From Amoebophrya sp. A120 (lineage: Eukaryota; Protista; Dinoflagellata): 64,000 nt of DNA. The stretch lies in assembly GCA_905178155.1 (NCBI GenBank), contig CAJINV010000005.1:6125207-6189206 (forward strand), read 5' to 3'. The translations under genes and the position numbers were made by a program. Below the pieces are notes generated by a model. The model was not told the DNA's origin. It worked only from the letters and a program-made list of their open reading frames with translations, and searched no databases. This document shows positions 443 to 58,528 of the stretch, in pieces (within the stretch, counting starts at the first letter, position 1; each line of letters starts with the position of its first letter).

Positions 443-1277
443 TTTCAATGCACTCGTCGTCGGGGTATTTCTTCCTTTGTCCAGAGGTAATATTTCCTCG
501 TCTTCATCTTCATTTTGTGCTTCTAGAAGTACACCTTCTTGCACGCTATGGAAGCGTCAGGATTGAAATCGTCAAAGTTGAAATAATTTCTCATGCATAA
601 AATGCAAGGCATAAAGTGCCTCTCTTGCAGGGATAGCAAGTGAAGCCGACTGTCAGCCTGTTTGGGGTCTGCAACAGAGATGCTAAAGCAGCATGACAAA
701 ACACGCCTTCTGTCCCTAAACAGCATGAGAAACTGGATTTAGAAGGTGCCGAAATTTGTCATGCACCGCTTAGAAATTGGGCTTCCAACTGGTATCGATT
801 TTATGCATCACAAGTTATTTCAACTTTGACGATTTCAAACCTGACACATCCATACACGCCGTCAAGATCATAAACATTTCCACTGGCTTTGCCGTGTAGT
901 TCAACATCTGCGAATGTCGATCTGTGTACGCCTTCTAGAAGTGAAGAAAGTGTTGCGCGACGACCACTTCTTTCAGTATCCACACTTACTAGTTCTTCAT
1001 CTACATCTTCCGGTAGTTTGTTTGATGTTTTTGTACCAGCTGGTACAACTGTCGTGGGTGAAACAAGGTTTCGCGTTGTCACCACTTTTTTCCTCTGCTT
1101 GTTCTGTCGGAGCAGGACGACTTTCACGGCGGTGACGGAGGAAATGGAAATAACTGGCGCCTTATTTTGGAACAACAACAGGAGCGACCAAGCAGCGTGG
1201 AACAACAACGCGAGCGGGTTGCTGTAACACGTCGGGATAATTTTTGTTGTTGGTCCTACACAAATAAAGTAATCCAA
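443..1277 (-). CDS. Low-complexity protein, paralog A (partial; start uncertain; continues past the introner ending at 442)
   Basis: ORF 801..1277 splices across introner 547-854 in frame (..YDLDGV|QEGVLLEAQNEDEDEE..SALK); homologous to 3650-3960. Confidence 0.55.
547..854. mobile_element. Introner family D (tatgga..gtcaggattgaaatcgtcaaagttgaaa TIR)
   Basis: TSD cacgc/cacgc. Confidence 0.9.
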
Positions 1278-3960: not shown

Positions 3961-5121
3961 GCAGCTCGTGATCACAAGTGATGTGGATGTTGACCTCGAA
4001 GTACTACGCACCACGTTATTTTCACTCCCATGTCCTCGCCCGTGTCCCATCATGTCGCCCGGTCGCGACCGGGCCGGAATTTGATATGCGAAGATGAGAA
4101 TGAGCGTCTAGTTATTTCAACATAGCGCCAACATGATTGACGGCGTTGCTATCTAGTTTGATTTCAAGGAATGATTTTTACGTAAGTAACGCTAGCTACG
4201 TATGAGTCTAGGTTGTAATGATCCAAATCTGATAATCATACTCTGTTGCGACGAGGTTGTTCACCGCGAAGCTTATGCTTCACCTTTCCTGGCTTCTATC
4301 CTGTTCTTGGGTCGTCTTCGTTCTGCCCCAGGCCCAGCAGCGCGACGCCGACGTCCTCGCAGGAAGATCTTCCGCACCACAAAGTCTTCTTGGCAGGACG
4401 AGCAGGAATCAAGAGCCAGCTCCAGCTCCTCGGTTGACAAGTGCGAAGAGAACGGGCTCCAATTTTTCCTGGCTCCTGACGGCGCAGAGGACCTACAACT
4501 CCAACTGCTCGCTGTGACTCTCTAATATTTCACCTCGTGCACAAAGCAAAGCTGCGTGTACAACTAAGTACAGCTGCAACGACCACGATCTCCAACCGTA
4601 CTGCAGGATGTTCTTGAGGAAAAAATGCAGTCTCGAAATAATTGCCGTTTTCCAAATCGTCCGTTCTTGACTGGCTCACTCCCTTCGAGGACGAGTGGCA
4701 GGTCCTGGTTGACGACAAACGGCCGCAAAGTCCTCCTCGCGGTTGTGGTTTTTATCGTGCGATACAGCAGCAGTTGACGAACAAAGTTGTCGAGTGTAAA
4801 GATGGGGAGGTCCTCCGGGTGTCGTCGGTCGTGGGTGTGGAGTAGTAGAGTATGCGTATGGATATGGAAGATTATTGTTACAACTAAGAAATAAGCTTTC
4901 ACCTGATTTCTCTTCCCTAAAGCGCTTAGCAGCTAAGGCCTTTATGAGGATAGTAGTTCATCTTGGCTCAACATTCCGTGAATTTCTTATAAATTTGTTC
5001 CCTTGATGCTCCACCGCTATAATTTTTAGGCGGTCTTTTTCTTAGTGCCACGACGAGGATGAACAGCTATGTGAAGATCTTCTTTTGAAGGCGAACGATA
5101 AAAATTTGATGCTAAGTATAC

Positions 5122-8100
5122 CTGGTTCCGCCGGGTACAGCTGTCGTTTTTGTAGTGCGTTTTGCCATATCCTGTGCAAAAGCATCCTACTCGCACAATA
5201 TTATTGCATTTTACATCAAATTGAAATTTGCTCAACGTGAGGACAAAGTCATGCAGATTTCGCTATAGGAGAATTCTCCCCATGCGGTATTGCAATAATT
5301 GGTACGAGTAGCACACTTTTGCTGTATGCATATCCCAGCTAGAAATCGCGTACCCTGTCTTATCCGTGGGCGCCTTGCAGCCCAAGCGACAGCAATTTCC
5401 GTCTTGCTTACACTGCGTCACGCCATCGGCCCGATTGTTGCACCAATTTATGGAGTCATACGGCGTTTGGGGCGCTGTCCCGGCGTATGCATCGCAAATA
5501 TGTCTGGGTCTGGAAAGTAGATGCAAGGTTTGTCATGCTTGGCTAGCATGACTCTTAAGTCTGTCATGCGCGTGGTGACCGAAGCCCGCCACTTTTCTCT
5601 CATGCAGAAGCTCACTTTGTCATGCAGAATAGACAAGACTGTAGACTGTACCAAAACTTGTCACGCTCAGCAGTCAATTGGGGTTTTCTCCTCTTTCTCA
5701 ACCAGCATCACAAGTTTCCAGACCCAGACACGTTTGCATTTGATACGGCGGCATTGAGGAGCAGCCTATCCTGGAAATAGGCTTTGGAACTGCTGTATGC
5801 AATACAAATTTCCTGTAGACAACGCACAAACTGCATGACAAATTTTAGTACCAAGCTGGACAGCATGCCACTTGTCATGCTGAATAGGATTGGAAGAAAA
5901 GTTTGTCATGCAGAAACCACATTTGTACGTCGTGTGTGGGAATAAATTTACTGTGGATATGCTATCCTTGTACAAACAAGCCACGTGCTTGCACATCGGC
6001 CAACACCAGCGGTTCTCGTAATATTGCCCATCTCCCTTGTCGCTGGTCTCCCACAGGTGCCGCAGACCGGGTTCGTAGGCCTGCTGTCCGTCGTCGGTAG
6101 CGGGCACTATGCGGACGTGGTTCATATTGGCCGTGCAGGAAGCGCTATGAACCGCAAAAGCATAATTGCACTAGGAGTGATTGCAATACAAATTTTTAGC
6201 TCAGCATGACAAATCGAATTTGTCATGCTGATTGAGCTTGGAAAGAAGATTTGTCATGCATAATTTCGACAACTACCACTACGACGAGCACGACACTTTT
6301 ACAATGCATAAGCGCAGCGCTCGGCGTGCGGCGCCGGACAGGAGTGGTCATTCATCTCCGTACCACCCGTGCACTTACACTTCGGCACGCATATCGCAAG
6401 AAAAAACTGTTTCACTGTAAACTTGTAATGCAGAAAAGGTATCCGAGAAATGTTTCTCTTGCTACACATGCATAGAACATTGGATTTTTAGCTGTGTTTT
6501 CCCTTAGCAATCTCGCACGGCAAATTTTCTCTGTGATGTAGAACAAACTTGTGATGCACAACTTGCAAAATCCTTACAGTGAAACACTTTTTTCGTATGA
6601 TAACGCACCCGTCCGGTTCAATCGTGATGCGATTCTCGGGCCCGGTGCACCGGAGCCTGGGGGCGGTCTTCGTGACGAAATCCCCCGCGTTGCACTGAAA
6701 CTTGAAATTTGCAGCGTTGTAGTTCGTCAGATCGGTCGCCGATTTGAAGGCCGCGCCGCTTTCTGGGTACAGGCTAGGGTCCGACAGCAACTCCGTCCAG
6801 TTCGGGTATGAGAGTGCACGACTCCCCCTCCCCCTCATTTGTATTGCATGAAGAGCTGCAATACAAACACCAGCACACGTGGAGCCTGTACATGAAAAAT
6901 TCATGCACCTAGTGCAGTACTGTTTGGGCTTCTGGAATCTTGTCATGCAAACAGTGCCACAGGGAAGCGAAGCGAAGCACTTGGGTTTGGGGTTTTGCAT
7001 GACAAATGAGGGGGAGGGGGTGGAGTTGTGCATTGTCATATCGGGAAAACGTCAAACATAGCTTTCACCCAAAGATGTTCCGGCTCTTGGCAGCTGCGGA
7101 TACAACAGGTACTGACTATGACCTGCTCAAGCGCTACAATCTCAAACGTTACTTACAATAGAGTCGCGGTTTTGTATTGCATGATGAGCATGACAGACTC
7201 GGACAGCATTCCGCTTTCTGCAATACAAATTTCCCCAGATTGTGCTGCGGATTGGGACTCCCGAACTTATCAGCGCAGTCCTATGAGAGTTGGCTAGAAG
7301 ATAATGCACTTTTTGCAACACAAGTTCCAGATTCTATTGTAACGTTTGAGATTGTAAAAACACCTGAGCAGGTTATACTGACGTCCGCAGCATTCTGAAT
7401 GTCGCAGTGGTTCGTTTGACACTGCAGCGCCGAAGTCGGGTTTCGCTTTTGCAGGTACCCTGTTAAGCCACCGTGGCAGTCCAGCGCCGAGGCCGTGCAC
7501 GCCTCTTTCTGAATTGCAAAAATGTCTGGGTCTGGAGGATGAATGCAGATTTTTGTCATCCTGTTTTTGCATGACGCAAAATGTCGGTCATGGAAGCCCT
7601 AGCATCACAGATTTCGAGAAGCTTCCGCATTGCTTAATCCGCATGACAAATCCCCCATTTTGGTGACAGGAAGTGGGCACCTTTTGCTGCCTATGCATGA
7701 GAGATTTGTCTGTGCTGTGAAATGCGCATCACAAGTTCGCATTCTTCCAGACCCAGACACTTTTGCAATGCATACTCTTTACAGCCCTGCAACTTGATCA
7801 AGCCGCCCTCGCTTGGACACTGCATCTGCACCGTGCTCGAGACCCCCTGGGGCTGGTGCGATGTTGCACAGGAAAAAAAGTCATCGCTGACAGTGTGTAT
7901 GGATGTGTCAGGATCGAAATCGGCAAAATCGAAAAATTTGTGATGCGCAAAATGTAGGGCACTGAAGGCCTGTATTGGGGAGCAGGTAAATGAGACCGAT
8001 TGTAGGCCTGTTTAGGGGTATGCAATGTGCTGCCAGAGTAGCATGACAGGAGGAGTCTTCTTTGCCCAAAGAAACAGCATGACAGAATGGATTTCGGTGC

Positions 8101-11100
8101 TTCCGAAGTTTGTCATGCGCCACTTGGAAACTGAGGCTCCAACTGGCATCGATTTTGTGCATCACAAGTTTTTCGATTTTGTCGATTTCGATTCTGACAC
8201 ATCCATAGTGTGCCAGGTGGTCGTACTAGTAGGCCGCCCCCGATCGCCCGAGGCTTGCAGGATGGGCTTCCAAGTCTCGCGGTCTGTCGCAAGAGGCGCT
8301 TTGAATACGTATCCGTACAGCATTTCGGTCTTTGTCGTGCCCTCGGGATACCGGCACACCTGCTGACAGCAGTCGTTGTCGCGACACCCAGTGTCGCTCT
8401 GCGGCACGCGCGTGGTGCAGTAGCCGTTATCGGTCGGGTTTTTCGTTCGCATGTAGAAGGAGGTGGACCCGTGCCCGTCTCCCTGGTAGAACTCATTTTC
8501 GCAGTCGATCGAATCGCAGCTCGCCCAACAGCCGTCATTTATGGAGTTCTCAAATCAGTATACATTCTCAACTGTGTTAAATGCGAGAATGGAAAAAGTG
8601 AAAGGAGGCAGATTTTTGCGCCTTTTGCGTTACAGGCTTGGCGGGACGAATTCTAGTGCTATTTAGCGCATCGAGAAGTTGTCACGCAAAGAAGGCTTGA
8701 GGATCGTGTGAAGAGAGATAGTGTTTTTGCATGACAAACCATGTAACACCTGTCGAGAATGTAAGAACGTTTGAGAACGCCATATCATTTAGCCCGGTTT
8801 TGTACTGTGCGTCCTGTCCCGCCTATCCAAGAAAAAAACATTGTAGCTGTAACTTTTATTTTGGAGAAACAGCATTACAAATTTGTCTGGCATGACAGCA
8901 ATAACCTGTCGCGCGCAGATAGTACGTGAAAACGGCCTAGAATACACCTTGCGATGCATGCCAAGCATGACAGACGCAATCATCTTGCATGTTGCGCATC
9001 ACAAATTTACACTAACAACGTTTTTTTCTTGGACACCGCCCCTGCGCACGTGAGCGACGGATTCGGGCCGCGGTAGTCCGGGGTGTTGCACTGTATTGCG
9101 CTGCTATGAACTGCAAAAGCATCGCACACGCACTAGTATAAGTTGTATCACAAATTGGCTTAGCATTAGTGATAATGCGGATTTGCCTTAACACAAAGAT
9201 TTGTAATGCATATTAAATGCAATTAGTACGAGTACGCTACTTTTGCAGTGCATAGCTGCTCTTTACCCACCCGGGTGAGTGTCCAGGGTCCATGGCCGCG
9301 GATTGTAACGCACTTGACCAATTCACGACGTAGGACGCGTCCGTGCTGCTTGGCTCCTTGCAGCCCGCGTTACAACAGGTGTCGCGGTCCCCGGTCCCGC
9401 CACAAACAGTGCTCGAACACTGGCCGGGGGTGCCGTGCTTCACAAAGTACTTTCCGTGCTGTCCCACCGGAAAGGTCGCGCAGAAAACGCCCGTGCACGT
9501 TTGCGCGCAACAGGTATCGTGGTCGGTCAGGCTCCAGGTGTGGCCACCCGTGGAGAAATACCGGTTGGTTGTAGACGTGATGGGATCGTCGAACCAAGTG
9601 TCGGGACCGGCGAAAAGCGCCACGCCATTCAGTTTGATGCTGCTCAGACACAACCCGTCACTAGTGCTGTGGTCAATGTTTAACGACTGCACAAAGCTAC
9701 CCGCATACCCCATATTCACACTCGCGGTGCGCTCCTGATTTTTGTTGTTGAAGTTCAAATTTACTGAGAAGCCGTTTCCAATTTTGTCCTTAAGTTTGAC
9801 CACCAGATTTGCGCTTGATTATCAAGTGCAAAAATGTCTGGGTCTGGAAGAATCCAACTTGTCATGCTAAATCTGAAGCATGCAAAAATCTGTGTTGCAT
9901 AACGACCAAAAGTGGTCCAGTTTTCACCAAGTCGGGAGGGGGTTTCTCATGCAGAATAGGCATGAGAGAGATCGCACAGCACCTGTCATGCTAGGTCGTG
10001 CATTCCAGACCTCGTGGGCCATGGAAAAGCTGCATGACAAATCGCGCATTCTTCCAGACCCAGACATTTTTACATTCCATATTGATTGCGCGTTGTTGAT
10101 GTTGCAGGATTTTGCTGCGACGGAGAGGTTATCAAATGCAAAAGTGTCTGGTTCTGGAAGAATGCAAGCTTTCCCATGCATATTTCTCATGACCCATGAT
10201 GCCTGTAATGCATGACCCAGCATCGCAGACTTTTAGAGGGCTTCCTGATGCACCTTCCGCATGACAAATGCCCTGTCAGTCCGTGTAGCACAAATTGTGC
10301 CCCTCTTGTTGCTGGTCACGCAATACAGATTTTTGTAGCATCCAAATTCAGCAGCACAAGTTGCACCCTTCCAGACCCAGACATTTTTGCATTTGATAGA
10401 GGTTAGGACCTTCGAAGATTCTACAGTCCGCGGTCGCGCAGAGGAGGTGTGACCGTGACGGTTTATGAATATGTGCAAAAGCATTGTATCGTACTAGTAG
10501 TGCAAAAATCGCAATACAAATTACGTAGCCCCCCAGCATGAATTTGTCATGCTACTTTGACTTGGAAACAAGACGACTTGTCTTGCATGACTGCGATTAC
10601 AACTACGAGTGCGATACTTTTGCACGGGATACGCTTTCGGCGTGTACGACTGCCCGCAGTTGGTATCAAATGTAAAAATGTCTGGGTCTGGAAACTTGTG
10701 ATGCTGGGTGGCGTCTCATGATGAGGCTACAAATGCTGGCTCAGCATGACAAGTTTCTGAGTTCCTAGGTGTTGCCTATTCTGCATGACAAACTGCGCTT
10801 CTGCATCACAGAAAAACGCAGTTCTTGGGTAACGTGCATGACAGATTTAAGAGTCATGCCAGACAAGCATGACAAACATGAATTCTTCCAGACCCAGACA
10901 TTTCTACAGTTGATAGTTGGTCACCGCGTCGCAACTCTGCCGACAGCACTGGTCCACGTCGCGGACACGTTCCGAGGTTGAAACATAGTACTTCATCGGC
11001 GTGCAGAGATTGTCACTACAAAGCAAGTTCTGCAGGGCGGGATCTCCAATCGGTTTCACGCGACTAAACATGGGAAGCAGCACGCAACTGTGATAGTCGT

Positions 11101-45000: not shown

Positions 45001-48000
45001 CAGGTTTGGAAATCGGAGTTCGTCGTATCAAACACGGTGGAGCACTTTTCCCCTGCACAAATGTATGCATATGGAAAAGCACCGCAGTCGTACAAATTCT
45101 TGCAATCCTGCATGACAGCTCTGTTTTGCCTACCTGAATCTGCAAGACAAAGTCCATTTTTCGTCATTTTGCGGAAACTTGTCATGCCATTCATACGTAG
45201 TACGATACTTTTGCCATGCATAACACCGCATCAGAAGCAAGCGCGTTGTCCGATACCTCGTAGTTTCCCGCCGCCTGGCCGTGCTCGCAGAGTTGTTTCG
45301 CGTTGTCGGAACTGCACTTCTCGTGGCAATATGCAATACAAACTTCCCGTAGGTACTGAATGTACAAAATGCATGACAAATTTCACAGTCCTGGAAAAAA
45401 CTTTTGTCATGCAGAACAGAATCGGCGAAAAGTTCTGTGGTCATGCAGAAACAGAATTCATACGTGTACGGAAAATTTCCGGCGGATAGGCAACCGGTGA
45501 GTTCTACCAACGCCCCCGGCGCCAAACACCGCAGTTGCGCCGTGCCTGGGTGGGAGTCCGCGCATTTTAGATCCGGGTGCTGCTTAAACGCCATGGTGCT
45601 ATCCGGGTACAGAGACAGTTGCGGAGGTTGGCTATTTTCGGAAACCAGGATGTCCTGCCAGGTCTTGCTGTTGATCAATTTGTACCCGTAGCTTTCGTCA
45701 ATATTCGCCGGTGGCCGGCAGGATTCGATACAGCAACTCTTCTTGCAATCGATAAAGTTGTGCCACTGCTCGTCGCAGTACGTCACAAGCGGTTGTTTTG
45801 TGTAATACCACGCGCCGCCGGGGTTGTAGCCGTATTGACCAACTGTGCCGGTCGCCGGCGTCGGGTGCAGACTCGTACACGTGACCGCACTGCAGCTGGA
45901 CCAGCAGCGTTTCTCCAGATTGGTATCCACCCCAACCTCCGGCCGCAGGCGGTAATCCGGAAGACAGTCGAAGCAGTACTGCATATTCGGCCCGGGGCAC
46001 ACGCTCGGGTCGTGGTTCGGGCGCCCGATGTTTTCGAGGGTGAAAAGGGTTGCGTCCGACTTATGAGAGTGCACAAATCCCCCTCCCCCTCATTTGTCAT
46101 GCAAAATACCGAGCCCACCTCTTGCATTCAAGCCAGCTGCGCATGACAAGTGTTGGACGGCCAAACAGGACTAGACTCCATGTCCGGAGTTGTCATGCAA
46201 AAGCTACATTTGTGGCATTGCTTCTGTTGCTGCTCATGCAATATAAATCAGGGGGAGGGGGAGTTGTGCACTCTCATACGACTTGTCGTTGGTGCAGAAG
46301 CACGTCGGCCGACAGTACAACTTCTCCACCTCCTCGTCCTCCTGACTGCACTTCAACCGGGCTTGCTGGGACAAGTTGTCGATTTGCTGCTCGCTATACG
46401 ACGGTGTAAGCGTGCTGTGATACCCGTCCGCGCATTTGAACGACGCGTGCTCGAATTCCACTGCGTGAACCCCCGACCCGGTAGCCGGCGGGTACAGTCC
46501 GCGCATGGTCAAAGCTTATCAAATGCAAACATGTCACCTGGGTCTGGAAATTTTCCAGATTTGTCATGCATATTCTCCATGAGCCATGATGTCCGTGATG
46601 CATGCCGTAGCACCACAGATTTTTAAAGGGCTTTGTGATCATACCTCTACCGCATGAGAAATGCCCTCTCCACGTAGGACAATCCCGACCCCTCTTGCTG
46701 GTCATCCAATACAATTTTTTTTAGGATCCACAAACAGCATCACAAGTTGTGACCTTCCAGATCCAGACCCAGACATTTTTGCATTTGATAAAGCTGCTTC
46801 CCAATCGATTTTATAGCCAGTTTTGTCCAGCGGTTCCCGGCATACTTTCTGACAGCAGTTACCCGATTTGCTACATTGCTCCCTCGTGTCGCGCTTCTGG
46901 GTGCACCACCGGATTTCTGAGTAGGTGTCGACGGTGGTGATATCAAAATGACTCGGTGCAAAGTCGAGCCGCGGCTGAAACCAGGCGTTCGTCGACAGTT
47001 CCTTAAAGTGACAGTCGACGAAAGAGCACTTCGCCCAGCACCAATGATTGTCGTACCTCGCCCCATCCCCTATCGCAAGAAAAAACTGCTTCGCTGTAAA
47101 CTTGTAATGCAGAAAATGTATCCGTGAAGCGTCTGTCTTGCTACACATGCAAGACGCTGGATTTTTAGCTGTGTTTTCCCTTAGAAATCTCGCATGGCAA
47201 ATTTTCTGTGTGATGTAGAACAAACTTGTGATGCAAAACTTGCAAAATCCTTACAGTGAAACACTTTTTTCCTACGATATCCCCGTAGAACGGCGCGATT
47301 GTCGGCCACGTGTACACCTCATCCATCAAATCGCCTGTTGCAGCTGGCAACGGAGCCGCCACGACCCACGCGACGGCGCCGCTGTTGTAGTTCGGAATGT
47401 TGTCCCCAGCGAGTTGCTCGACGGTCCACCGGTTTTTCCCCGCGGCCCCTTGCGACGACCAGACCTGTATCGAAAGGAAAAATCCCCCCTCCCCATACTG
47501 AAATGGTATATTTTTCGATATTTGTGATGCTCATTTGTGGCCACAAATCGTGTCTGTATTGCAAGAAGGCAACTCCGCAGGCTCCGCCGCATTGTGCAGG
47601 CGGTTTGTCATGCTGTTGGGCCTACAGCGCGGATGTTTTTCATGCTAAGCGCCTAGCCCAAAACCTTTCTACTCACGCTTGATATGGGCCTGCAGTGCTC
47701 TTCAGCGAGACAGCTCGGATTGTGTACACAAATCCAGCATCAGAAGTTTCGTTTTGATGTGGGGAGGGGGGATTTTTCCTCTCGATAACCTGCACGGTAG
47801 TCGTCGGTGCCTGCGTACGGTCCGCAGACATGAGCGCGTAGCCGATGCCGTTACTGTCTTTCCCCACATCAATCAAGCGCCACTTTGACGCCCCGGTGCC
47901 GATCTGGATGAATTTGGGCCCGAAGGATATTTTTGCGGCGGCAAAGCTTTGTAAAAAATCCCGGCTCGGCCAGGGACTCCAGCTTGTGCGCTTCAAAAAT

Positions 48001-51000
48001 GACGTGTGGAGCGGAAGATTATCCGGTGTCGTTCCGCCGTTGGCAAAGTTAGCCCAGTTGTTGCTCCGAAAAATTTCCGCCGTCCGAATATCCGCGGTTA
48101 TTTGCCCATTTTCGGGTAGATACGCGATCCCGAAGTGCGAAAGGTTGACAACGCCCCCGTTCGTGGACAAGCCAAACCGCCACCGGCCAAATTGCAGGAA
48201 TCGGTCGCCGAAATACACCCCCTGAACAGCACCCCCGGCAGCATCAGCAACGGGTCGGCTCCATAAAACCGCGGAGCTACCCGTCAGATCCGAACCGCAC
48301 AACGCTTGCACGGCAGCACTTGCCAAACACTGCGCGACCGTCCCGGCGTTGCCACCCGTGCGGCACACATGCCCGTTGCTGGTCCAAATAGTCGCAATCT
48401 GCTCCCCCCGGTGCTGCAGGATCAAACACGAAGATCCAGTCGCACTGCTGATTTCTCCCAGCCGCCAGTCGCCGAACTCGACGAAGCGATCCCCAAACGT
48501 CACCATACTACCCGCCGGCGTGGGAAGCATCCGCGGGCTGACTTCCCGTAACGCGTACAGCTATGCATTGCAAAAGCATCATACGTAGTGAAAATAAATA
48601 GCACCACAAATTTTTTCAGAAGGACGAAAAATGCAATTTGTCATGCCAAATTAGCGTAAGCAAACCAGATCTGTCATGCTATATAGTACGATACTTTTGC
48701 AAAAATGGATAACAGCTCATTGTCGGCGATTAAGTCCGCGGTCGGCGTGAATTGTGCCACGAGTTCCACCGACGAATCTGTTTGCTCGCAGGCGATGCAC
48801 CGTTGTGCGTGCGGGGCCGGGCAGTTTTGGTCGTCCGGGTCAACTATCAATTGCAAATATGTCTGGGTCCGGAAGGTTCTGAGACTTGTCACGCACGTTT
48901 TGCATGAGCCATGACGTCTGCGATGCATGCCCTAGCATCACAGATTTTCTGAGGTCTTCTTGGTGCCTATTCTGCATGACAAACGCCCTCAATCTCTCCG
49001 CGTAGCAGAAATGAGAATCATTTTGCTGCTCATGCATTTAGAGATTTTTTTGACATCGAAACGCAGCATCACAAGTTGCAACCTTTTTCCAGACCAAGAC
49101 ATATTTGCATTTGATATCAACGGTGCCAAACGCGCAGTCGCAGATCGGCAGACAACCACGAAACTGGATCTCGCCGTTATTTTCGTTCGGGTTGCACTTG
49201 AACTCCGCGATGGAATGGGGGTGATAATTCTCACTGTTGCAGGCGAACCTTGCGACGTCAAAGGTCGGTCCGGTGACAATGCCAGTTAAGTCTGTCGACT
49301 GCACCTGTCACAGGAAAAAGTGTTGACGTTAACGGAATTTGTGATGCAGCAATGCATCACAAAAAGCGTCAGAATTTGTCATGCATAGCATGCATATTGG
49401 GCTACATTTGTGATGCATGGCTGCAATCTGTGAAAACTGTAAACGTTAACACTTTTATTTCCTGTGATAGCACCCAGCCATCTCCTACGTTCGCCGGTAC
49501 GGTTGGATAGAGAGCCGCGTCGGTGAGAACCGCGTTCCAGTCGGGAGTCACGACAAACTGCTTCTCCTCGTGCATTACTGCAGGTTTGGTGCATATCAAG
49601 TGCAAAAACGTCACCAGCACCCCAGACTTGTCATGCAGAGTTGCATCTACAGAAACGTTTGTAATGCGGGTTCCCATGAGGGACATTTCTAGTCGTGACT
49701 TGAAATTTGTAATGCTGGAAACAGGATGAGCAGATGGATTTGTGATGCGGATGCCGTTACGAAGAACCCGCACGATGCTCCGGACTGCAACTTGTCATGC
49801 GTGGCTCCCAAAGCTCCTAGATTTGTGTTGCCAAGTGTCCAACTTGACCACTATAGGGGTGGGACGTTTTTACTCAGGATAGTGCACGCCCGGACGCAGC
49901 AAGTGTCCAGGTCGGTCGCCTCGGTACATTGGTAGTCGGCACACTGATATGAACTGCAAAAGCATCGCACTCGTAGTAATTGCAACCATGCATTACAAGT
50001 CATTTTCTTGAGGTAAATCCGCATTGTAAATTTTATTTCTCATGCTGAGGAAATTTGTGATGCATTTATACGAGTACGATACTTTTGCAATGCATAACTG
50101 AGTCGACGCGTGGTTGCTTCGTTTCAAGTACCCGAACGGGCAGGTTAATGCTGTGCACCGCTGCGCTATCAACTGCAAAAGTGTCTGGGTCTAGAAACTT
50201 GTAATGCTGCGTTGGGAATAGCGAATGCTCTGCAATCCACAGGCAAGCATGAGAAATATTAATATTTGCGTTTCTTTGTGTTGCCTTGTTCGCATGACGA
50301 ACTGCGTTTTTGCATGACAGGCAAAAGGGTCTCTTCTTGGACACGCATGACAAACTTTTTGGTCATGCCAGACAAGCATGACAAATCTCGCAATCTTCCA
50401 GACCCAGACACTTTTGCATTTGATATGCGCGCAGCAGGTTTTGAAGTCCGGGGAGGTGAGAAATCCGGAGTTGGCGTGGCAGGTGTTGGTATCGCAAACA
50501 TACGCCGTGGGCGTCGTCGCCGCATTGGTTTTGACCTCGTAGTTATCAAAAGTAAAAATGTTTGTGATGCAGGGTAGCGTCTCATGATGAGGCTACCAAT
50601 GCTGGCTCAGCATGACAAGTTCCTGAGCTCCTAGGTGTTGCCTATTCTGCATGACAAACTGCGCTTCTGCATCACAGAAAAACGGAGCTCTTGGGTAACG
50701 CGCGTGACAGATTTAAGAGTCATGCCAGACAAGCATGACAAACATGAATTCTTCCAGATCCAGACATTTTTACAATTGATAGTAGTCCTGTCCCGCCGTG
50801 GCGCACAAATACCGGCCGTTCGGCGATATCAATATGAAAAATCCCCCCTCCCCATATCAAAGTGGAAATTTCTGATTTTGGATGGCTAAGGGCTGGGCGT
50901 CCCCGAGTAGACTATATCTAAAAAACTTAAACCACATACCCGGTAAACTCTAGTAGGATTTTTATTTGGACGATGTGATTTCTACCGAAAGACAGCAACA

Positions 51001-54000
51001 GCAGCTCCTGGGAAGGCGGCGTAGAGAGCTGTGTTGTTATCTGAGTAGAAATAACTTCGTACAAATTTGCCCACTAGCACCGAGGGATCAAAAAAAGTAT
51101 AGAGAGGAGTACTACCAAAAAGAAAAAACTAGTTCTAATTCCACTATATATAAAAACGCCCTAAAGCTGGCACCCTCGCACTGGTACAACTGAAAGACCA
51201 CCAAAGTGGAAATTTCTGATGCTGGTTTGCGTACTCAAATCCGACTTGTCGTGCAGTAAGGCACCGCGGCCAAATCCGCAGCCTAGGTGGGAGCGCTCAG
51301 GTCTAGTTGTTCAGCATTGCAAACGGCTACCCTCTAGGACCAACAGCATGTCAATTCGCTCTCACAATTGGGCGGATTCCTCTGCACTTGTCTTCTTGCA
51401 AGACAGACCTGATTTGTGGTCACAAATCAGCAGCACAAATTTTCGGAAACATACCTTTTCAATATGGGGAGGGGGGATTTTTTCTCTTGATAGGCGAGTC
51501 GCACTTCTCGCGGCAGCCATTCATTTCCACTTCCAGCTCCGGGCCTAGGCACCGGTACTGCGCTGTTCCGTGGTGGGTGGGTTCACAGAGAAAATAGGTG
51601 TCCCAACTGTGGTAAACGGGGTTGGCCGCCCCCGTCTGCGGGTAGCCCCGGGTGGCAGAGGTCAGGGCGTGGAGCCAGGAGACGCCGGATTTGAATGTGT
51701 ATCCATACCCGGTTGTCCCCGGCGTTTCCTGGTTCACCGGCGGGTAGCAGCCGAGGACGCAGCAGGAATCCAGACAATTTTGCCACCGGTACTTTTGCTC
51801 CGAACAGAACCGGTCCGGGTTAGCTTGGTTGGTCAGGTAGTACGCACCGACGGAGTTGTGCGCGGTTGATTGGTCCTCACACGAGTCTGTGTTATCCTGC
51901 GGCGGGTTCCCCGACGTGAACGAACTGCAGTCCGCCCAACACCGGACCTCGCCGTTGCTATCAAGCGGCTTCAGCTTGTGTATCCTGTGCAAAAGCATCG
52001 CACACCTCGTAGTAATTGCGTTTATGCATGAGTTTTCTTTTTCTAAAGGTATATCAGCATTACAAATTCATTTGCAATGCTGGGCTAGTTTGTAATGCAA
52101 TTCATACTAGTACGATACTTCTACAGTTCGTATTGTGTTTGTCGTTGCAACTCGTGCAGTACTGTTTCTATGACAGTGCACAACTCCCCCTCCCTCTCAT
52201 TTGTGATGCAAAACCCTAAGTCCAAGTGCTTTCCTGTGGCACTGTTTGCATGACAGATTCCGGAAGCCCAAACAGTACTGCACGAGGCGCATGAATTTGT
52301 CATGCACAGGCTCCACGTGTGGTGGTGTTTGTATTGCTGTTCATCTTATACAACTGAGGCGGAGGGGGAGTTTTGCACTCTCATAGTTTCCGTTGCGACT
52401 CGTGAACGATCCCCGCCGGCCGGGGGCACCGGAGCTGGCCGGCGATCAGTTCGTCTGACCTTACCGGCGTATGCATTGCAAATTATGTGTATGTCTGGGT
52501 CTGGAAATTTGTGATGCTACAATGTGACTGGTGGGCGCACTGCAATACGCAGCCCGGCACGACAAATTTTTGAGCTGCTCTTGTGTTTCGTTTTCCGCAT
52601 GGCAAACTGCGTTTCTGCGTGACAAACAAGAGGCCCTTTTCCTGCTCCTGCATCACAGACTTATGGTTATGACTCATGCCAGACAAGTATGACAAACTTG
52701 CATTCTTCAAGACCCAGACGTTTTTGCATTTGATACGGCGTGCCGATTTGCAACTCCTGGTCTGCCGGAGTAGTCATTTGGTCCGCGGTGCACCGGCAAA
52801 TGGGGTTGCAGCCTTTGACCTGCAGTTCCGTATCCGGGTCCTCACATTTCAAACTGGCTTGGTACCCATTCAGACTCACGAGGGACTCGTAGTTGAACTT
52901 GCACGTGTAATTGGCCTCGGTCTGCCACACACTAACACCCGCCCCGTGGGGGTAGAGTTCCTCGGAGATGATCACGCTGTGCCATTGGATGTTGTAGGGG
53001 ATCTTCGCGAACGCGGACGGTTCCCGGCAGCCCTTGACGCAGCACCGATCCTGGTCGGTTGGTCGGTCGCATTCCCAATCTGTGCACTGGATCTATCGCA
53101 GGAAAAAAGTGTTACAGGTACACATTGTGTTGCAAGACCGGCAACACAGATAACCTTTCTAATGCAGGAAATGCTTGGGAGCCTCGTTTCCTTCCTGTTT
53201 TCCCTTATGATTTTCGCATTACAAGTTTTCCCTGCCACACAGAGAAAATAATTTGTGATGCAGAAACTCCAACAAATGTGTAACTGTAACACTTTTTTCT
53301 CGTGATAGGATCTGCGCCTCGTTTAACCGCTTGTGATACACCGCGGGCGCAACGTATCGCAAGAAAAAACTGCTTCACTGTAAACTTGGGATGCATAGAA
53401 TGAAACACAGACGCAGTTGTCTTGCTAAGATGCAAGACATTGGGTTTTTAGCTCTGTTTTCATCCCTTAGGAACCTCGCATGGCAAGTTTCCTTTGTCAT
53501 GTATATACGAACTTGTGACGCAAAACTGGCAAAATCCTTTACAGTGAAACACTTTTTTCTCACGATACAACGTTGTCGCAGGTCAAAGCTGTGCACATTT
53601 GGGCGCAGCAGTGCCGGAAATCCGAATTCGTGTTGACGATGTCGTATTCCGTTTCGCACATCATCTCTTTGCACTGCCGCCCCGTGTTGGTGATCACCTC
53701 GTAGTTGTTATGGGATTCTCAGCTGTTACACTCTCAACTGTTTTTACACGAATTTGTGATGCAAGAATAGAAAAAGTGAGAGAAGGGAGCTTGTTGCACC
53801 TCTCGCATTACAAATTTGGCACAGATTCCCATGCTGCTTAGCCCTTCAAAAATTTGTCATGCGAAGTAGCTTCATCGTGTGCATCCATGCTGATGAGCAT
53901 TTTGCATAACAAATCGTGTAATGGTTGAGAGTGTAACGTTTGAGAAGGCCATAGTTGTGAAAAATGGGGTCGAAACTGCTGGTCCCAGTGACTGTGTCGA

Positions 54001-57000
54001 AACTCAAGGTATCAAGCGCAAAAGTGTCTGGGTCTGGAAGGTGGTAACTTGTGATGCTGTCTTTGGATTCCAAAAACATCTGCATTGCATGACTAGCAAA
54101 AGGAGCCCAATTTGTGCTACACGTGTGTGTGTGTGTGATGACCTTTAACTCCTGTCAGGGCGGCGTTAGAACAGATCTAGCCTCTGCCAATACCGTGGCG
54201 TTAGAGCAGATTTAGCCTCTGCCAATACCCCTAGGTGGACACCCGTTCCACGTCCTACAGGTACCACCCGACCGCACCCGCCGAACCGTTTCCGATTTCT
54301 TACGCGTGCATGCGGCCGGTGGGCGCTAGATGTGGCTGCCCTGCTTTACCATCCAAGCCCGCGAGCAAGGTGGAGCTCCAGCGTTGCCTTGCTGGGTTAT
54401 TCTTACAAACGTGGAACGCTACTGCTTCTGTGGTCGGTTGCGCCTACACGGGGAGGGCATTTCTCATGCGGAATAAGCATCAGGAAGCCTTCTAAAAATC
54501 TGCGAAGATGCTAGGGCATGCATCACAGGCGTCATTGGTCATGCAAAATATGCATGACAAGCCTGGCAATCTTCCAGACCAAGACATATTTGCACTTGAT
54601 ACAAGGTCGGACTGGATTCACAGAGGTACTTCCCGGCCTCCGAGTCGCACGGTTCCCCACACCCTCTCAATTCGATCAACTGCCCCGACCCGAGACAGCG
54701 GAATTCCGGTCCATCCCCGTAGCCGCTGTGCGTGGAATCGCAGACGAGTTTTGGGTTTTTTCTCCACGTCAGGTCCCCCGGGTTGGGGTAGGAGGAGCTT
54801 ATCCTGTGCAAAAGTATCGTAGTCGTACTATACTTCTAATCGTATTCATGCATTACAATGTTCTTTCTCAAGTTGAATCCGCATTACAAATTCTATTTCT
54901 CACGCTGAGGAGATTTGTCATGCGATTTATACTAGTACGATGCTTTTGCATTTCGTAGAGCTAACCCCACTGTTAAACTCGCTGTCCAAGATGTCCCGCC
55001 ACGTGGCCCCGGCGGCCAACTCGAAGCCGTAACCCTCGTTCGTGTTCGGCTCCGGGGGCCGGCATATGCATTGCAAAAGCACCGTACTTGTATTGCAATC
55101 ATGCATTACAAGTCTTTTTCTACAGGTAAATCCGCATTACAAATTTTTTCTATGTTGAGGAAATTCGTATTGCGATTTATACTAGTACGATGCTTTCGCA
55201 ATGCATACGGCAGCCCGGAATGCAGCAGCTATCCCGGCAATCGATTTCGTTGCGTCTCTGCTGCGAGCAGTAGTCTACCACCGCGTCGGGGCTCTTTCGG
55301 GTGAAGTAGTACGCCCCGCCCGGATTTGTCGCTGTTGGGGTCGTGGCCGCGAAACTGGTGCAGGTGATAGAGCTGCAGGCCGCCCAGCAGCGCCGCTGCC
55401 CGTCACTGCCTGGAGTTCCGTCAGTGTTAGGGTGGTGAATGTAGTCAGTGATGCACTGGTGGCAGTACTGCTTCGCGGGACCGTATCCAAGAAAAAAACT
55501 GTGTTGGTGTAACTTTCTGTTTCTTTGGCTGTCAGCATCACAAATTTATTTGCTCTACATGACTACAGAGAAAAAAAAGGTCGTCGATGGTATCAGACTA
55601 AAGGATTTACGGAATCGGACTTATTTCTGGAATCAGGCTAGTGGAATCAGGCTAACAGTTGGAATCAGACTAGTGGAATCAGGCTAGTGCTTCAACATCG
55701 CGTCCGTGTTCTGTCGTGCTCGCGCGCCCGGGTCTGGTAGTAGTTTGTTGCGCCCACTGCTGAATCATGTGGCCGCTCCTGATCTTAAGCGGAGGCCTTT
55801 GGTGCTGTTACAGCACCAAAGACCTGCTTGACTTTCGGCACCATCCACGGGCCAGTGTCTCTCCGCCACCGCCGATCCCGTTCGATATGTCCAAGGGCGC
55901 CATGCTTCCCAACAACACTGACGCCAAGCCCGGGTAGATTGCCTGAGATATGTTTTTTTTATAGGAGATTCAGGCTGAAAAAAACGGGAATGCGATGCAT
56001 AGGTCTGGCGCAAAATGAAAATCTACGCAGCAGCCCCTTTCTGCCTCGCACCACTACCATCTTCAGCAATATTCGTGTATAGGTATACTTAGAACCGCGC
56101 GCGAAGTTGCAAAAAAGTGCTCCGCGCGGCACTGCGCACAGTCGTCTCCTTTTCGCGGGCCTAGTCTTTTTGCCAACTCGATGCACGAACAACCACAACT
56201 CCAGAGGCTGTGTGCAAAACGCATGGATGCAAAGTCTTGGGGCGGCGCCCGCGCCCGCCGAGGCACGGCGAGAAAAGAACTAAAGATGAGGAAGGAAGCC
56301 GCAGAGCGCTGCAGCCACTGACGGAATAAAAAAAAGCGACATCACAACGAAGCGCCTCGCAACACTTGCTCATTGGTCCAGCGCCGGGCTTTGCGAAGTA
56401 GAAAACGCAAAAAAAGGGTCGACTTTTTAAAATTTGCCAGCGCTCCCCCCCTATTTTTTGCTCAGAAGTCGGGAAGTTGGGCAGTTTTTGTTTAAGTTCG
56501 AGAAATTGCCTCCAGATAAGCGCGGCGACTTCGCGTCTTTTCCTCTTGACATGTTTCAGCTTCCCGTCGTTCTGTGCGCATGACCCTGCCTGCGCCGCGC
56601 GGCCACGGCCCGGGCCGTGCTCTGCTTTTCGCTGTAGGCTTTCCTAGGATCTCTGCATGGGGGAGCAGCTCGCGACGACGCGAGGGCTTCTAGCAGCCAG
56701 GCGGTGCCCGCTAGACATGGCCGGCGACATCACAACGAGTCGCCTCGCAACACTGACTCCTTGGCCCAGCGCCGGATCTTGCAAAGTAGAAAACACAAAA
56801 ACAGGGTCGATTTTTGAAAATTTGCCAGCGTTCCCCCCTTATTTTTTGCGCAAAAATCGGAAAAATATGCAATTTTTGTTTAAGTTCGAGAAATTGAATC
56901 CGGATAACCGCGGCGCCTTCGCGTCTTTTCTTCTTGACATGTTGCGCGTCGCTCTGTGCGCAGGAACCTGCGCGGCCACGGCCCGAGCCGTGCTTTGCTT

Positions 57001-58528
57001 TTCGTTTGGGCTTTCCTACGATCTCTGCGTGGGGGAGCAGCTAGTGAGGACGCGGGATGATCTCCTAGCAGCCACGCTGTGCTCGCTAGACATAGCCGGC
57101 CAACTACCTCGCCCTTTCTAACCAATGGGAGCGAGGCCAGACAGTTGCACCCCGCGCAAAACAGAGAAGTAGAGCGTCCTTTTTGGGAGGGTAGAAGAGA
57201 GGGCGGCAAGACTGAGAAGTAGAAAGGAGTAAAAGGCAAAGGAAAGAGCAGCAACAGCAGCAGCAAATCTGTTGCTTTGTTAAGGAAAACCATCACGCCC
57301 GCAATGCATTAGATGGAAAGTAGAGCACGACGCCCCTGCTCACTTCGCGAGAGCGAAGCAGTCTGTCTCCCTTCTGGCTCCGTGACGCCGCGCGGCGGTG
57401 TGTGAGAGTCGTAGTGGTGGCGCGAGGTCTCATGCATAAAGCTAGGACATGCGTTTCTTTATCTCGCGATTCGTTTCAAAATATTAATATATATAGTACC
57501 GCCGCGCCAAAAATAAACAAGCAACGTGGTATCATCTGAAAAAGAAACAATGTATCTGCATTTAGTACCTGCTAGGGCCCGCGCCCGTCATCCATGACAC
57601 ATGCGCGGTCTGCCAGTCGTGCCGTCGCGAGGATGAGGAAGCGAGTGAGCCGAGAATGATCCGGAGCTTGTGATAGAAGTTGACCCGGGCTGGCCACCGA
57701 GGATCGCCGAAAACAACTTCTATGCAAGATATACTATGAAAACCTTGCCCCCCCTCCGTCTAAATGTGGTCTGATGCGCAGACATACAAAGCATGCAAAT
57801 CAAGTCCCGCCTGAAATAGAAGCGCGGCAGCGAACACGCACTGCCCACAGATGAATTGACGAGAAAGCGATGGGCCAAAGCGATGCTTGCAGGAGGGCAT
57901 CAACATATCCAATGCATACGACAGAGAACACAATGACCGACCACATTCATTCGACGACGGATGGGGATGCAGACTCAACGTATAACTATAATTCTGATTC
58001 AAGTATCTTGATTCTACTCACTATTCTGATTCCACTAGTCTGATTCTACATCTAGTCTGATTCCATTAGTCTGATTCCATCTGTTTAGTCTGATTCCCTC
58101 TCTTACCGAAAAAAAAAGTGTGTCATGCGTGGCTTGTAAGGGAAAACACACACGAACAGAGGACTTCATGGGTGTCTGGCATGACATGTGTAACTCTGTT
58201 GCATGTTCTGCATTACAGAGTTACACTTACGCAGTTTTTTCCAGGCATAGCCCGGGGCACTTGTTGGTGCTGTGGTCCGGGGTGCCGAGGATGAAGTTAG
58301 GATCGGAATTCGTACTGGTGTCCGACGTGCAAAAACAGGTCGGCACGCAGGTTGACTTCTCTACCTCGGCCCCGGACGAAGGACACGCGAGGTCGACGAG
58401 CTGGGAGAGCTTTGAGGTGGGGAAATTGACCGTGTAGTCCGCTGGGTATTTCGTCGAATGGTAGTTAGTCGCACACTGGAAGCTTGAATGCGCGAAGGAG
58501 GGTATGGACAGGGGCAGAATTGATGTCG
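25973..58528 (-). CDS. Gene 2: giant multi-exon type-I-membrane-like Cys-rich repeat protein, 5' incomplete; 54 introners plus a 2.15-kb GT-AG intron; C-terminal TM helix, Lys/Asp-rich and GGSSAFG-repeat tail
   Basis: A repeated unit CC..GC..P....GY.I.W..AL....LYP...F.C...YH....C...CPGP..Q.C..C....RCW..CS recurs across exons. The spliced C-terminus reads NATWC|AAWDSFDPGFGYDWRLGIRSFLCVQFL|VFFASVLYVLRFKW..SSSS|SDGDDD..GE|KKKK..GSK|MGGGSSAFGG..GGVDD* (stop at 25973). Confidence 0.85.
26240..26540. mobile_element. Introner family E with nested insertion
   Basis: TSD ttcga/ttcga. Confidence 0.9.
26381..26432. mobile_element. 52-bp truncated copy of the same retroposon-like family, nested in an introner
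   Basis: 20-bp TSD gccttccggagtttgtcatg (26361-26380/26433-26452). Confidence 0.75.
27114..27288. mobile_element. Introner family K
   Basis: TSD tctcc/tctcc. Confidence 0.85.
27388..27616. mobile_element. Degenerate introner family B
   Basis: TSD ggaat/cgaac; frame restored. Confidence 0.75.
27844..27992. mobile_element. Introner family B (splits the TM-coding region)
   Basis: TSD caaga/caaga. Confidence 0.9.
28078..28301. mobile_element. Introner family A (degenerate)
   Basis: TSD cacaa/cacac. Confidence 0.8.
28868..29018. mobile_element. Introner family B
   Basis: TSD tctgt/tctgt. Confidence 0.9.
29107..29342. mobile_element. Introner family F
   Basis: TSD acagt/acagt. Confidence 0.9.
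30387..30548. mobile_element. Introner family B
   Basis: TSD gcgtc/gcgtc. Confidence 0.9.
30813..30973. mobile_element. Introner family B
   Basis: TSD tgcct/tgcct. Confidence 0.9.
31530..31812. mobile_element. Introner family G
   Basis: TSD cactc/cattc. Confidence 0.85.
31911..32121. mobile_element. Introner family I (tatc...gaaaaaagtgttacagttacaca TIR)
   Basis: TSD tctct/tctct. Confidence 0.9.
32171..32449. mobile_element. Introner family G
   Basis: TSD atctc/atctc; near-perfect TIR. Confidence 0.92.
32537..32686. mobile_element. Introner family B
   Basis: TSD aagtg/aagtg. Confidence 0.9.
32957..33256. mobile_element. Introner family D
   Basis: TSD aagaa/cagaa. Confidence 0.85.
34369..34584. 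mobile_element. Introner family E
   Basis: TSD cagaa/cagaa. Confidence 0.9.
34644..34793. mobile_element. Introner family B
   Basis: TSD gcagc/gcagc. Confidence 0.9.
34924..35073. mobile_element. Introner family B
   Basis: TSD agtct/aatct. Confidence 0.85.
35690..35843. mobile_element. Introner family B
   Basis: TSD tcaca/tcgca. Confidence 0.85.
36251..36465. mobile_element. Introner family I
   Basis: TSD gtgta/gtgta. Confidence 0.9.
36619..36890. mobile_element. Introner family A
   Basis: TSD acgtg/acgtg. Confidence 0.9.
37303..37564. mobile_element. Introner family A
   Basis: TSD accgc/cccgc. Confidence 0.88.
37957..38111. mobile_element. Introner family B
   Basis: TSD ctcct/ctgca. 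Confidence 0.82.
38451..38729. mobile_element. Introner family G
   Basis: TSD tacat/tgcat. Confidence 0.85.
39186..39408. mobile_element. Introner family C
   Basis: TSD cgcat/cgcat. Confidence 0.9.
39649..39870. mobile_element. Introner family I
   Basis: TSD cagtt/cagtc. Confidence 0.88.
39922..40261. mobile_element. Introner family H (tatcaa....gaaaaatcccccctcccc TIR)
   Basis: TSD gcgtg/ccgtg. Confidence 0.85.
40564..40875. mobile_element. Introner family H
   Basis: TSD gcatt/gcatc. Confidence 0.88.
40934..41088. mobile_element. Introner family B
   Basis: TSD ccgga/ccggg. Confidence 0.85.
41380..41639. mobile_element. Introner family A
   Basis: TSD agtgg/agtgg. Confidence 0.9.
41691..43844 (-). 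other. Putative canonical GT-AG intron (2154 bp, phase 1) of gene 2
   Basis: CCC GGA G|GTATGA ... TCCCCAG|GC GCA AAC joins RELYPVPG-GANADWHTESGFVCADH in frame. Confidence 0.75.
41963..42001. repeat. (CAT)n microsatellite in the long intron
   Basis: About 13 tandem CAT units. Confidence 0.9.
44565..44816. mobile_element. Introner family A (young subfamily, reverse orientation)
   Basis: TSD gacaa/cacga (both differences synonymous). Confidence 0.9.
45064..45222. mobile_element. Introner family B
   Basis: TSD diverged (aaatg/acacc) but frame restored. Confidence 0.75.
45330..45488. mobile_element. Introner family J
   Basis: TSD ggcaa/ggcaa. Confidence 0.8.
46062..46278. mobile_element. Introner family E
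   Basis: TSD cgact/cgact. Confidence 0.92.
46517..46790. mobile_element. Introner family A
   Basis: TSD aagct/aagct. Confidence 0.9.
47071..47279. mobile_element. Introner family C
   Basis: TSD tcccc/tcccc. Confidence 0.9.
47468..47787. mobile_element. Introner family H
   Basis: TSD acctg/acctg. Confidence 0.9.
48562..48711. mobile_element. Introner family B
   Basis: TSD acagc/acagc. Confidence 0.88.
48845..49116. mobile_element. Introner family A
   Basis: TSD tcaac/tcaac. Confidence 0.9.
49306..49469. mobile_element. Introner family I-like (left end TGT)
   Basis: TSD gcacc/gcacc. Confidence 0.85.
49594..49881. mobile_element. Introner family G
   Basis: TSD gtgca/gtgca. Confidence 0.9.
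49948..50096. mobile_element. Introner family B
   Basis: TSD actga/actga. Confidence 0.9.
50167..50425. mobile_element. Introner family A
   Basis: TSD tgcgc/tgcgc. Confidence 0.9.
50544..50781. mobile_element. Introner family A (young subfamily, part of left TIR deleted)
   Basis: TSD gtagt/gtagt. Confidence 0.9.
50827..51492. mobile_element. Introner family H with nested insertion
   Basis: TSD ggcga/ggcga. Confidence 0.9.
50877..51201. mobile_element. Truncated retroposon-like insertion nested in an introner
   Basis: 19-bp TSD caaagtggaaatttctgat; shares the end ttgga.ggctaagggctgggcgtcccc with 26381-26432. Confidence 0.75.
51981..52132. mobile_element. Introner family B (right end GTA)
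   Basis: TSD ttgtg/ttgtg. Confidence 0.88.
52169..52385. mobile_element. Introner family E
   Basis: TSD gtttc/gtttc. Confidence 0.9.
52470..52735. mobile_element. Introner family A
   Basis: TSD cggcg/cggcg. Confidence 0.9.
53094..53307. mobile_element. Introner family I
   Basis: TSD ggatc/ggatc. Confidence 0.9.
53355..53567. mobile_element. Introner family C
   Basis: TSD caacg/caacg. Confidence 0.9.
53709..53953. mobile_element. Introner family F
   Basis: TSD gttgt/gttgt. Confidence 0.9.
54010..54601. mobile_element. Introner family A with nested insertion
   Basis: TSD caagg/caagg. Confidence 0.9.
54124..54443 (-). mobile_element. SINE/LINE-like fragment with a (CA)n tail, nested in an introner
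   Basis: 7-bp TSD ctacacg; (TG)n at the left end; internal ~34-bp tandem duplication ggcgttaga.cagat.tagcctctgccaatacc. Confidence 0.6.
54800..54957. mobile_element. Introner family B (right end GTA)
   Basis: TSD gagct/gagct. Confidence 0.88.
55065..55207. mobile_element. Introner family B
   Basis: TSD cggca/cggca. Confidence 0.9.
55484..58249. mobile_element. Introner family I enlarged to 2.77 kb by a nested MULE-like element
   Basis: Both halves match 14587-14945; TSD gaccg/gcccg; frame NKCPG|PAKQYCHQC restored. Confidence 0.82.
55579..58107. mobile_element. Non-autonomous MULE-like TIR element nested in an introner
   Basis: GGT...ACC ends, inverted arrays of ggaatcagactagt-like subterminal repeats, 9-bp TSD gaaaaaaaa (55570-55578/58108-58116), internal ~385-bp imperfect tandem duplication (~56340-57100). 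Confidence 0.75.

Follow-up and report, generated by a model that had tools for sequence, protein, structure and literature searches.

TAT...ATA introners in two cysteine-rich genes of Amoebophrya sp. A120: probable removal from RNA, a probable single cut register and polar end constraints

Results

The window (the entire 64,000-nucleotide stretch of DNA that was analyzed) holds two minus-strand genes for cysteine-rich repeat proteins, both interrupted many times by transposon-like elements that begin with TAT and end with ATA. Host gene 1 (5045..23612), which is known from sequence only, reads as a protein of 2,456 amino acids without its 42 elements, and host gene 2 (25976..58577) as one of 5,020 amino acids without 54 elements and one GT-AG intron. 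Removal in silico had been named as a test in an initial annotation of this DNA, and taking out these 96 elements together with the GT-AG intron (42 junctions in gene 1 and 55 in gene 2) does leave both frames open. With no interruption left in either frame, the set of elements found within them is nearly complete, and the conservation of TAT and ATA described below is therefore unlikely to be an artifact of detection. The gene 2 product has a hydrophobic segment near its C terminus. Relatives of the cysteine-rich module in these proteins occur in other protists, including Symbiodinium microadriaticum, and the module belongs to no Pfam family; no Pfam family was found for the public gene 2 protein, a search with a gene 2 exon among proteins of 652-2000 amino acids returned no homologue, and a Pfam search of 11 unspliced open reading frames gave only an RVT_1 match at the right edge and one sub-threshold match.

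A gene 2 exon is 100% identical to a public 4,662-amino-acid protein of Amoebophrya sp. A120 (GSA120T00009913001, CAD7951555.1), which confirms the kinship with Amoebophrya introners that the initial annotation had proposed. Comparison of this protein with our spliced model crossed 20, 26, and 2 junctions with no internal differences (48 junctions). When 53 gene 2 elements were checked one by one, 47 junction peptides were found in the public protein, 5 elements lay upstream of its start, and the remaining one (27114) adjoins the sole place where the public model differs, namely, the element at 27388..27616 (minus strand; direct repeat [DR] match of 3/5, frame-keeping removal), where the public model has the same 5' end and a 324-nt intron. 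The public model starts at 53664, while the open frame runs about 5 kb further upstream (53664-58577) through five more elements, so that GSA120T00009913001 looks 5' truncated.

Only one GT-AG intron was placed in gene 2 (41691..43844, minus strand; 2,154 nt). It starts with GTATG, that is, G-TAT-G, and its letters at +2 to +5 are the same as those of the elements in the register proposed below. Inverted repeat arms about 720 bp apart lie inside this intron (42453-43211) without TAT ends and are perhaps another mobile element. Calling GT-AG introns from frame alone was abandoned, as it gave too many candidates, and the three frame breaks examined proved to be missed elements. GTATG occurs at open reading frame ends in other loci 8 times against 1.6 expected, a count confounded by undetected elements.

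Between 547 and 58249, in both orientations, we curated 99 TAT...ATA elements flanked by a 5-bp DR, 26.8 kb in total. Three of them lie outside any long frame (547-854, 2985-3224, and 3343-3487) and were excluded from the oriented counts. Those of gene 1 lie at 5168-5332, 5486-5745, 5796-5959, 6146-6310, 6392-6602, 6807-7040, 7117-7377, 7508-7774, 7898-8207, 8540-8784, 8824-9035, 9105-9254, 9820-10081, 10130-10398, 10464-10631, 10664-10915, 11442-11705, 11779-12043, 12231-12483, 12611-12748, 12804-13061, 13109-13394, 13569-13806, 14090-14240, 14587-14945, 15028-15316, 15372-15535, 15836-16071, 16136-16417, 16518-16667, 16945-17209, 17273-17582, 17628-17776, 17833-18023, 18324-19639, 19646-19908, 19967-20292, 20307-20454, 20521-20828, 21374-21621, 21893-22172, and 22948-23205. 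Those of gene 2 lie at 26240-26540, 27114-27288, 27388-27616, 27844-27992, 28078-28301, 28868-29018, 29107-29342, 30387-30548, 30813-30973, 31530-31812, 31911-32121, 32171-32449, 32537-32686, 32957-33256, 34369-34584, 34644-34793, 34924-35073, 35690-35843, 36251-36465, 36619-36890, 37303-37564, 37957-38111, 38451-38729, 39186-39408, 39649-39870, 39922-40261, 40564-40875, 40934-41088, 41380-41639, 44565-44816, 45064-45222, 45330-45488, 46062-46278, 46517-46790, 47071-47279, 47468-47787, 48562-48711, 48845-49116, 49306-49469, 49594-49881, 49948-50096, 50167-50425, 50544-50781, 50827-51492, 51981-52132, 52169-52385, 52470-52735, 53094-53307, 53355-53567, 53709-53953, 54010-54601, 54800-54957, 55065-55207, and 55484-58249. 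A strict scan (exact 5-bp DR, end complementarity of at least 10/16) found 65 such pairs in the window, whereas none turned up in any of 10 Markov controls; the rest of the set came from relaxed scans and from frame checks. The earlier estimate of about 100 elements, mostly of 140-340 bp, was confirmed: 94 of the 99 measure 138-345 bp, and five are longer (359, 592, 666, 1,316, and 2,766 bp).

The DR is exactly 5 bp long, in that flanking offsets agree only at background level, and its sequence is arbitrary across elements. The two copies match at 5/5 positions in 75 elements, 4/5 in 17 (at least 4/5 in 92 of 99), 3/5 in 6, and 2/5 in 1, with mismatches distributed evenly among all five positions. 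The families had been described as having unrelated terminal inverted repeats (TIRs), which does not hold, as all TIRs share TAT-S-N4 followed by an A-rich stretch, within a pattern of TAT, 7 variable bases, and an A run. The accompanying count of about 11 families comes close to what clustering gave, namely, 8 multicopy families holding 83 of 95 elements and 12 singletons. Pairs within families are opposite in orientation 203 times and the same 199 times, and both orientations occur within the same minus-strand genes. Pairing between the ends is loose at TIR positions 4-7 (39-56 of 88) and tight at 8-13 (70-84 of 88; elements 45064 and 45330 excluded), and the hairpin of the element at 37303..37564 has a z score of -8.3. 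About 97% of ends have G or C at TIR position 4, yet the two ends are complementary there in only 128 of 233 elements; this is an identity constraint independent of pairing.

With TIRs, a target site duplication of fixed length, and no coding capacity, the elements have the features of MITEs, or non-autonomous TIR transposons. No recognizable enzyme was found in the window elements, which leaves the earlier suggestion of an element-encoded machinery without a carrier among them, and no autonomous partner with the same ends was found in the window or in a scan of other loci that covered elements of up to 700 bp. An Rfam search and a TIR motif search of viral contigs each gave 0 matches. The longest element (55484..58249, minus strand; 2,766 bp) has family-type ends, subterminal repeats, and an internal duplication of about 390 bp, and its removal keeps the frame; it gave no transposase match, and the 4 open reading frames tested in it gave no Pfam match.

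Cutting out the element plus 5 nt beats +4 and +6 for open-frame length at 91 of 93 junctions tested, which, together with the 48 junctions of the public model, upholds the claim that the element and one DR copy are removed precisely. The frame also survives offsets of +2 and +8, which were ruled out by the contig arithmetic given below and not by the frame. The one exception that had been reported (5767-5959) was a boundary error, since the true element lies at 5796..5959 (minus strand) with a DR match of 4/5 and its removal restores the frame. An element with a DR match of only 2/5 is removed in frame in the public model, and this, together with the even spread of mismatches, indicates that DR homology is not needed for removal.

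Some elements lie very close together, with genomic spacers of 14 nt (20293-20306) and 6 nt (19640-19645), which implies that splicing is sequential or independent of exons. The shorter spacer separates a tandem pair of elements (18324..19908, minus strand; 18324-19639, 1,316 bp, and 19646-19908) whose removal restores the frame in silico and between which the proposed register predicts an exon of 1 nt.

Whether the elements leave at the RNA or the DNA level can be judged for gene 2, among the contig joints listed. DNA-like contigs (X1) cover 27.4-46 kb in long pieces at a depth of 22-29 with 0 differences and span five whole elements. In two sets of likely-RNA contigs (X3 and X4), by comparison, the gap equals the element plus 5 nt in 7 of 7 computable gaps (4 distinct gaps, 7 elements); their depth declines from the 3' to the 5' end of the gene, with almost no coverage of the GT-AG intron. 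X3 and X4 were taken as RNA by guess and come from a single sample, and they and the public model are probably not independent. In both, the exons flanking the element at 35690..35843 (minus strand) adjoin directly, with at least 3 upstream DR bases kept. The elements at 31530 and 38451, which have opposite orientations, are both skipped in likely-RNA contigs. As the DNA-like contigs keep the elements and the likely-RNA contigs skip them with 5 nt, RNA splicing is favored over DNA excision of the kind seen for ciliate internal eliminated sequences (IESs), which are absent from somatic DNA, whereas X1 retains the elements (one sample, joints listed). We conclude that the element plus 5 nt is very probably removed at the RNA level. 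Among raw RNA reads from another sample with the same species label (X9), 113 matched, 112 of them only in part and all on element ends, and the element ends of 37299-37336 and 34919-34949 stood in different flanks; these reads come from related elements in another strain or species.

The cut itself can be located from the base retained where the two DR copies differ. In the contigs, the number of upstream DR bases kept is at least 1 at 28078, at least 3 at 31530, 35690, and 37957, at least 4 at 38451, and at most 4 at 37303; in the public protein it is at most 4 at 39922, at least 1 at 39649 and 40934, and at least 2 at 45064, and the two sources agree at shared junctions. The contig bounds assume that ambiguous letters go to the right-hand piece, as they do at all 8 perfect-DR ends listed. 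Three minus-strand elements pin the register: at 37303..37564 the copies differ at transcript position 5 and the downstream base is kept, giving at most 4 upstream bases (X3, X4, and the public protein); 39922..40261 also differs at position 5 and gives at most 4 from the public protein; and 38451..38729 differs at position 4 and keeps the upstream base, giving at least 4. Four is the sole single value that fits all informative junctions (9, of which 3 pin the register), with its lower bound resting on one junction (38451) in one record (X3). Paralogous modules were informative at 2 imperfect DRs only (37957 and 40934). The intron is thus probably N-TAT-S...S-ATA-NNNN, cut between the 4th and 5th DR base; a few junctions make a single register more probable than a cut that varies between 3 and 5. 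The initial annotation placed the join inside the duplicated 5-mer, where it is probably not free to vary.

Table S4 of Farhat et al. was considered as independent support for this register and then downgraded. The nine top A120 splice pairs in it all begin with N-T (PMC7789003, as far as its accessible text goes), a start that register 4 alone predicts; 8 of the 9 also carry A at -2, an excess absent from our set, and, as the pairs were called with Hisat2 according to the same source, they may reflect the preference of the aligner.

The ends are more strongly conserved than the DR, with variants at 7 of 546 TAT/ATA positions in the window against 27 mismatches in 455 DR positions (p=6e-5); TGT stands in place of a TAT end in 3 of 95 window elements. 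The seven variants avoid +2 and -7, for which chance alone could suffice. We examined this polarity in 144 other loci fetched by a TAT-free motif (80 of the 80 listed on JACKZZ01 contigs), with ends detected from TIR positions 9-28 only. They yielded 258 unique elements, of which 138 could be oriented by a codon score and 120 could not; the same rule was correct in 90 of 90 calls among 93 window elements. In the 138 oriented copies, end variants number 0 at +2, 0 at +3, and 1 at -7 compared with 3 at +4, 1 at -6, and 6 at -5, so that variation largely avoids +2U, +3A, and -7A (1 variant against 10, p=0.012; small counts, not RNA verified); +2 also differs from its pairing partner -5 (p=0.03). 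In the oriented set of 233, +2 is U in 233 of 233, +3 is A in 232 and G in 1, and -7 is A in 232. Mutation bias does not explain this polarity, because A>G and T>C both occur on the coding strand, nor does pairing alone, because +4 and -6 tolerate C-A mismatches that are not seen at +2. A process blind to transcription would be symmetric, and the polar constraints accordingly speak against removal at the DNA level.

The terminal intron bases appear to be free in these 233 elements. First and last bases occur in all 16 combinations without covariation (p=0.18), there is no enrichment of A at -2, and no purine rule follows the 3' cut. GT-AG is found in 5 of 233 in the proposed register, and among the 75 perfect-DR elements sliding within the DR yields it in 2 and GT/GC-AG in 5, consistent with the earlier observation that no GT-AG pair is shared; the termini likewise do not follow GT/GC-AG or AT-AC. 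The 5' splice site of spliceosomal introns has +2U and a +3 purine, as in GUAUGU in yeast and RUAUCC in U12 introns, and +2U, +3A, and one late A are positions that the spliceosome reads. Our elements carry the +2U and +3 purine when read in the proposed register. A yUnAy branch context surrounds the -7 position in 92 of 233; a single copy carries G there.

Discussion

The window elements belong to the introners that Farhat et al. (2021) described in A120, and the system has thus been published (PMC7789003). In its accessible text these introners have inverted repeats of TAT, 7 variable bases, and AAA, a length of about 240 nt, DRs of 3-5 nt (5 bp in the legend of Fig. S19), RNA-seq support, and no internal transposase. 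Strain, annotation, TAT motif, size, DR, repeated families, and noncanonical removal from the transcript (gene 2) are the same in the window; what differs is a DR of strictly 5 bp, the fit of every informative junction to one register, and the polarity of the end constraints. The accessible text leaves the border position undetermined or variable and the splicing mechanism open, the latter as the initial annotation had said. The literature searched, which included few subscription papers, yielded no mention of a fixed register or of end constraints that are polar, and Figs. 3 and S19-S25 of Farhat et al. may show the register.

We propose, with a probability of roughly 0.45, that these are non-autonomous, transposon-like introners that are kept in the DNA and removed by a hairpin-guided, U1-independent spliceosome core. 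Insertion, in either of the two orientations, would very probably be the work of an integrase or transposase encoded elsewhere and would create the 5-bp duplication. The element and 5 nt would then, very probably at the RNA level, be taken out of the pre-mRNA (7 elements in likely-RNA contigs, 48 public-model junctions), probably by one cut 1 nt ahead of TAT and another 4 nt beyond ATA. With such cuts, DR parts of 4 and 1 nt would rebuild the original 5-mer, and every insertion would be neutral from birth. It is possible, if a little short of even odds, that a stem from TIR position 8 inward joins the ends, with N-UAU-S recognized as a 5' splice site, branching at the -7 A, and the 3' cut set by distance; because positions 4-7 pair loosely and those from 8 onward tightly, both end signals would be left accessible.

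Several observations favor a spliceosome. The spared letters resemble the start of the GT-AG intron (GTATG at 41691..43844), and, in the available text of Farhat et al., most spliceosomal proteins and U2, U4, U5, and U6 are present in A120, with U1 and the minor spliceosome not detected (PMC7789003). U1-less splicing is known in C. merolae (PMC10158995), and noncanonical, transposon-derived introns of Fritillaria are described as processed by the spliceosome (PMC11282704), as far as these sources could be consulted. Against it count the free and uncorrelated terminal bases, since pairing of the first and last bases is said, in the part of the source available, to be necessary for spliceosomal exon ligation (PMC13326754), and also that -2 is not A rich, that the -7 A has a weak U2-pairing context, and that the hairpin would need to be opened at both ends.

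A serious contender, of somewhat lower probability, keeps the register and dispenses with the spliceosome: an endonuclease would measure from the hairpin, 1 nt at its 5' side and 4 nt at its 3' side, a ligase would join the exons, and a linear or circular intron would be released, as has been suggested for nonconventional introns of euglenids. Free terminal bases, a strong hairpin, and removal in both orientations (31530 and 38451) all suit it, as does a Euglena analog with uneven geometry (N3-CDG...CH'G-N5-6), circles, and proteins proposed in the accessible text to be non-spliceosomal (PMC12501133). Against it speak the spared +2U, +3A, and late A, which are those that the spliceosome reads and match the start of the GT-AG intron, and the DR and inverted repeat structure reported for 15% of canonical A120 introns, which suggests one continuum (PMC7789003, in part).

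Removal from RNA with a cut that floats inside the duplicated 5-mer, without fixed register, is unlikely. Farhat et al. call splice sites variable relative to the hairpin (PMC7789003, accessible text), and the register is pinned by just 3 junctions; on the other side, every informative junction is compatible with 4, and the even mismatch spread and in-frame removal of a 2/5 DR suggest that homology is unnecessary. Far less probable still is precise, IES-like excision from a somatic or stage-specific genome, which the initial annotation had offered beside RNA splicing and which the data do not support. The transposon anatomy would fit, X3 and X4 are not recorded as RNA, and rare element-less DNA is conceivable beyond the joints listed, but X1 keeps the elements at an even depth of about 22-29, X3 and X4 behave like RNA in their 3' bias and in almost lacking the GT-AG intron, the end constraints follow transcript direction, and such introns were validated by RNA-seq according to the available text of Farhat et al. 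(PMC7789003). That the insertions simply killed the genes is the least probable reading, for despite 26.8 kb of insertions and a gene 1 seen in genomic sequence only, the frames of 2,456 and 5,020 amino acids are open, and spliced contigs refute it for gene 2.

Related introns elsewhere resemble those of the window in part, as far as the available literature goes. Nonconventional introns of euglenids likewise have a TIR hairpin that joins the ends, TSD-like repeats, and non-GT-AG borders, and their 3' spacer is 2-3 nt longer than the 5' spacer (PMC12501133, PMC11282704). In contrast, their signature is N3-CDG...CH'G-N5-6|R and that of the window N1-TAT-S...S-ATA-N4, so that our elements fall outside it; euglenid introns also have a purine after the 3' cut and circles shown in Euglena (PMC12501133), whereas ours show no purine rule and are known from sequence and contigs. 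Introns of Fritillaria borealis are transposon derived with TIRs and TSDs and mostly non-GT-AG, as here, and they prefer AG-AC and AG-AT ends, with U1 retained and a divergent U2AF (PMC11282704, PMC13326754), whereas the window elements have free terminal bases and A120 has no detected U1. Introner family 38 and Ginger-like elements are intron-making TIR elements of A120 itself; family 38 has integrase-like open reading frames, unlike the longest window element, and these integrase-bearing elements are a candidate source of mobility (PMC12130899, in part).

Removal of such elements is not new: it has been published, and the public gene model already leaves them out. A probable fixed register and the three spared nucleotides make the removal of tens of thousands of such introns in A120 testable, and either outcome as to mechanism would show how a genome renders mass transposon insertion harmless. 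More tentatively, we speculate that A120 may use a second, hairpin-defined intron code that replaces U1, U2AF, and both terminal dinucleotides, with the branch at the -7 A. Under this code the spliceosome core would cut 1 nt ahead of UAU and ligate 4 nt beyond AUA, irrespective of the letters around them; because 1+4 equals the 5-bp duplication, any TAT-ended element would be a perfect intron anywhere, in either orientation, even around an exon of 1 nt.

Some further features lie toward the edges of the window. At 279-442 a family element is represented by its right half, no left end having been found, and it follows a 12-bp tandem repeat (51-215). Segments at about 445-545, 860-1050, and 2815-2870 have rearranged copies some 3 kb away at 3665-4020, where the element at 547-854 has an empty-looking counterpart; they are possibly a duplicated or decayed gene fragment. 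At the other edge, an element-free open frame of at least 1,233 amino acids (60300-63998, minus strand) matches RVT_1 at E=7.7e-7, just under the curated cutoff, and is probably a non-LTR retrotransposon.
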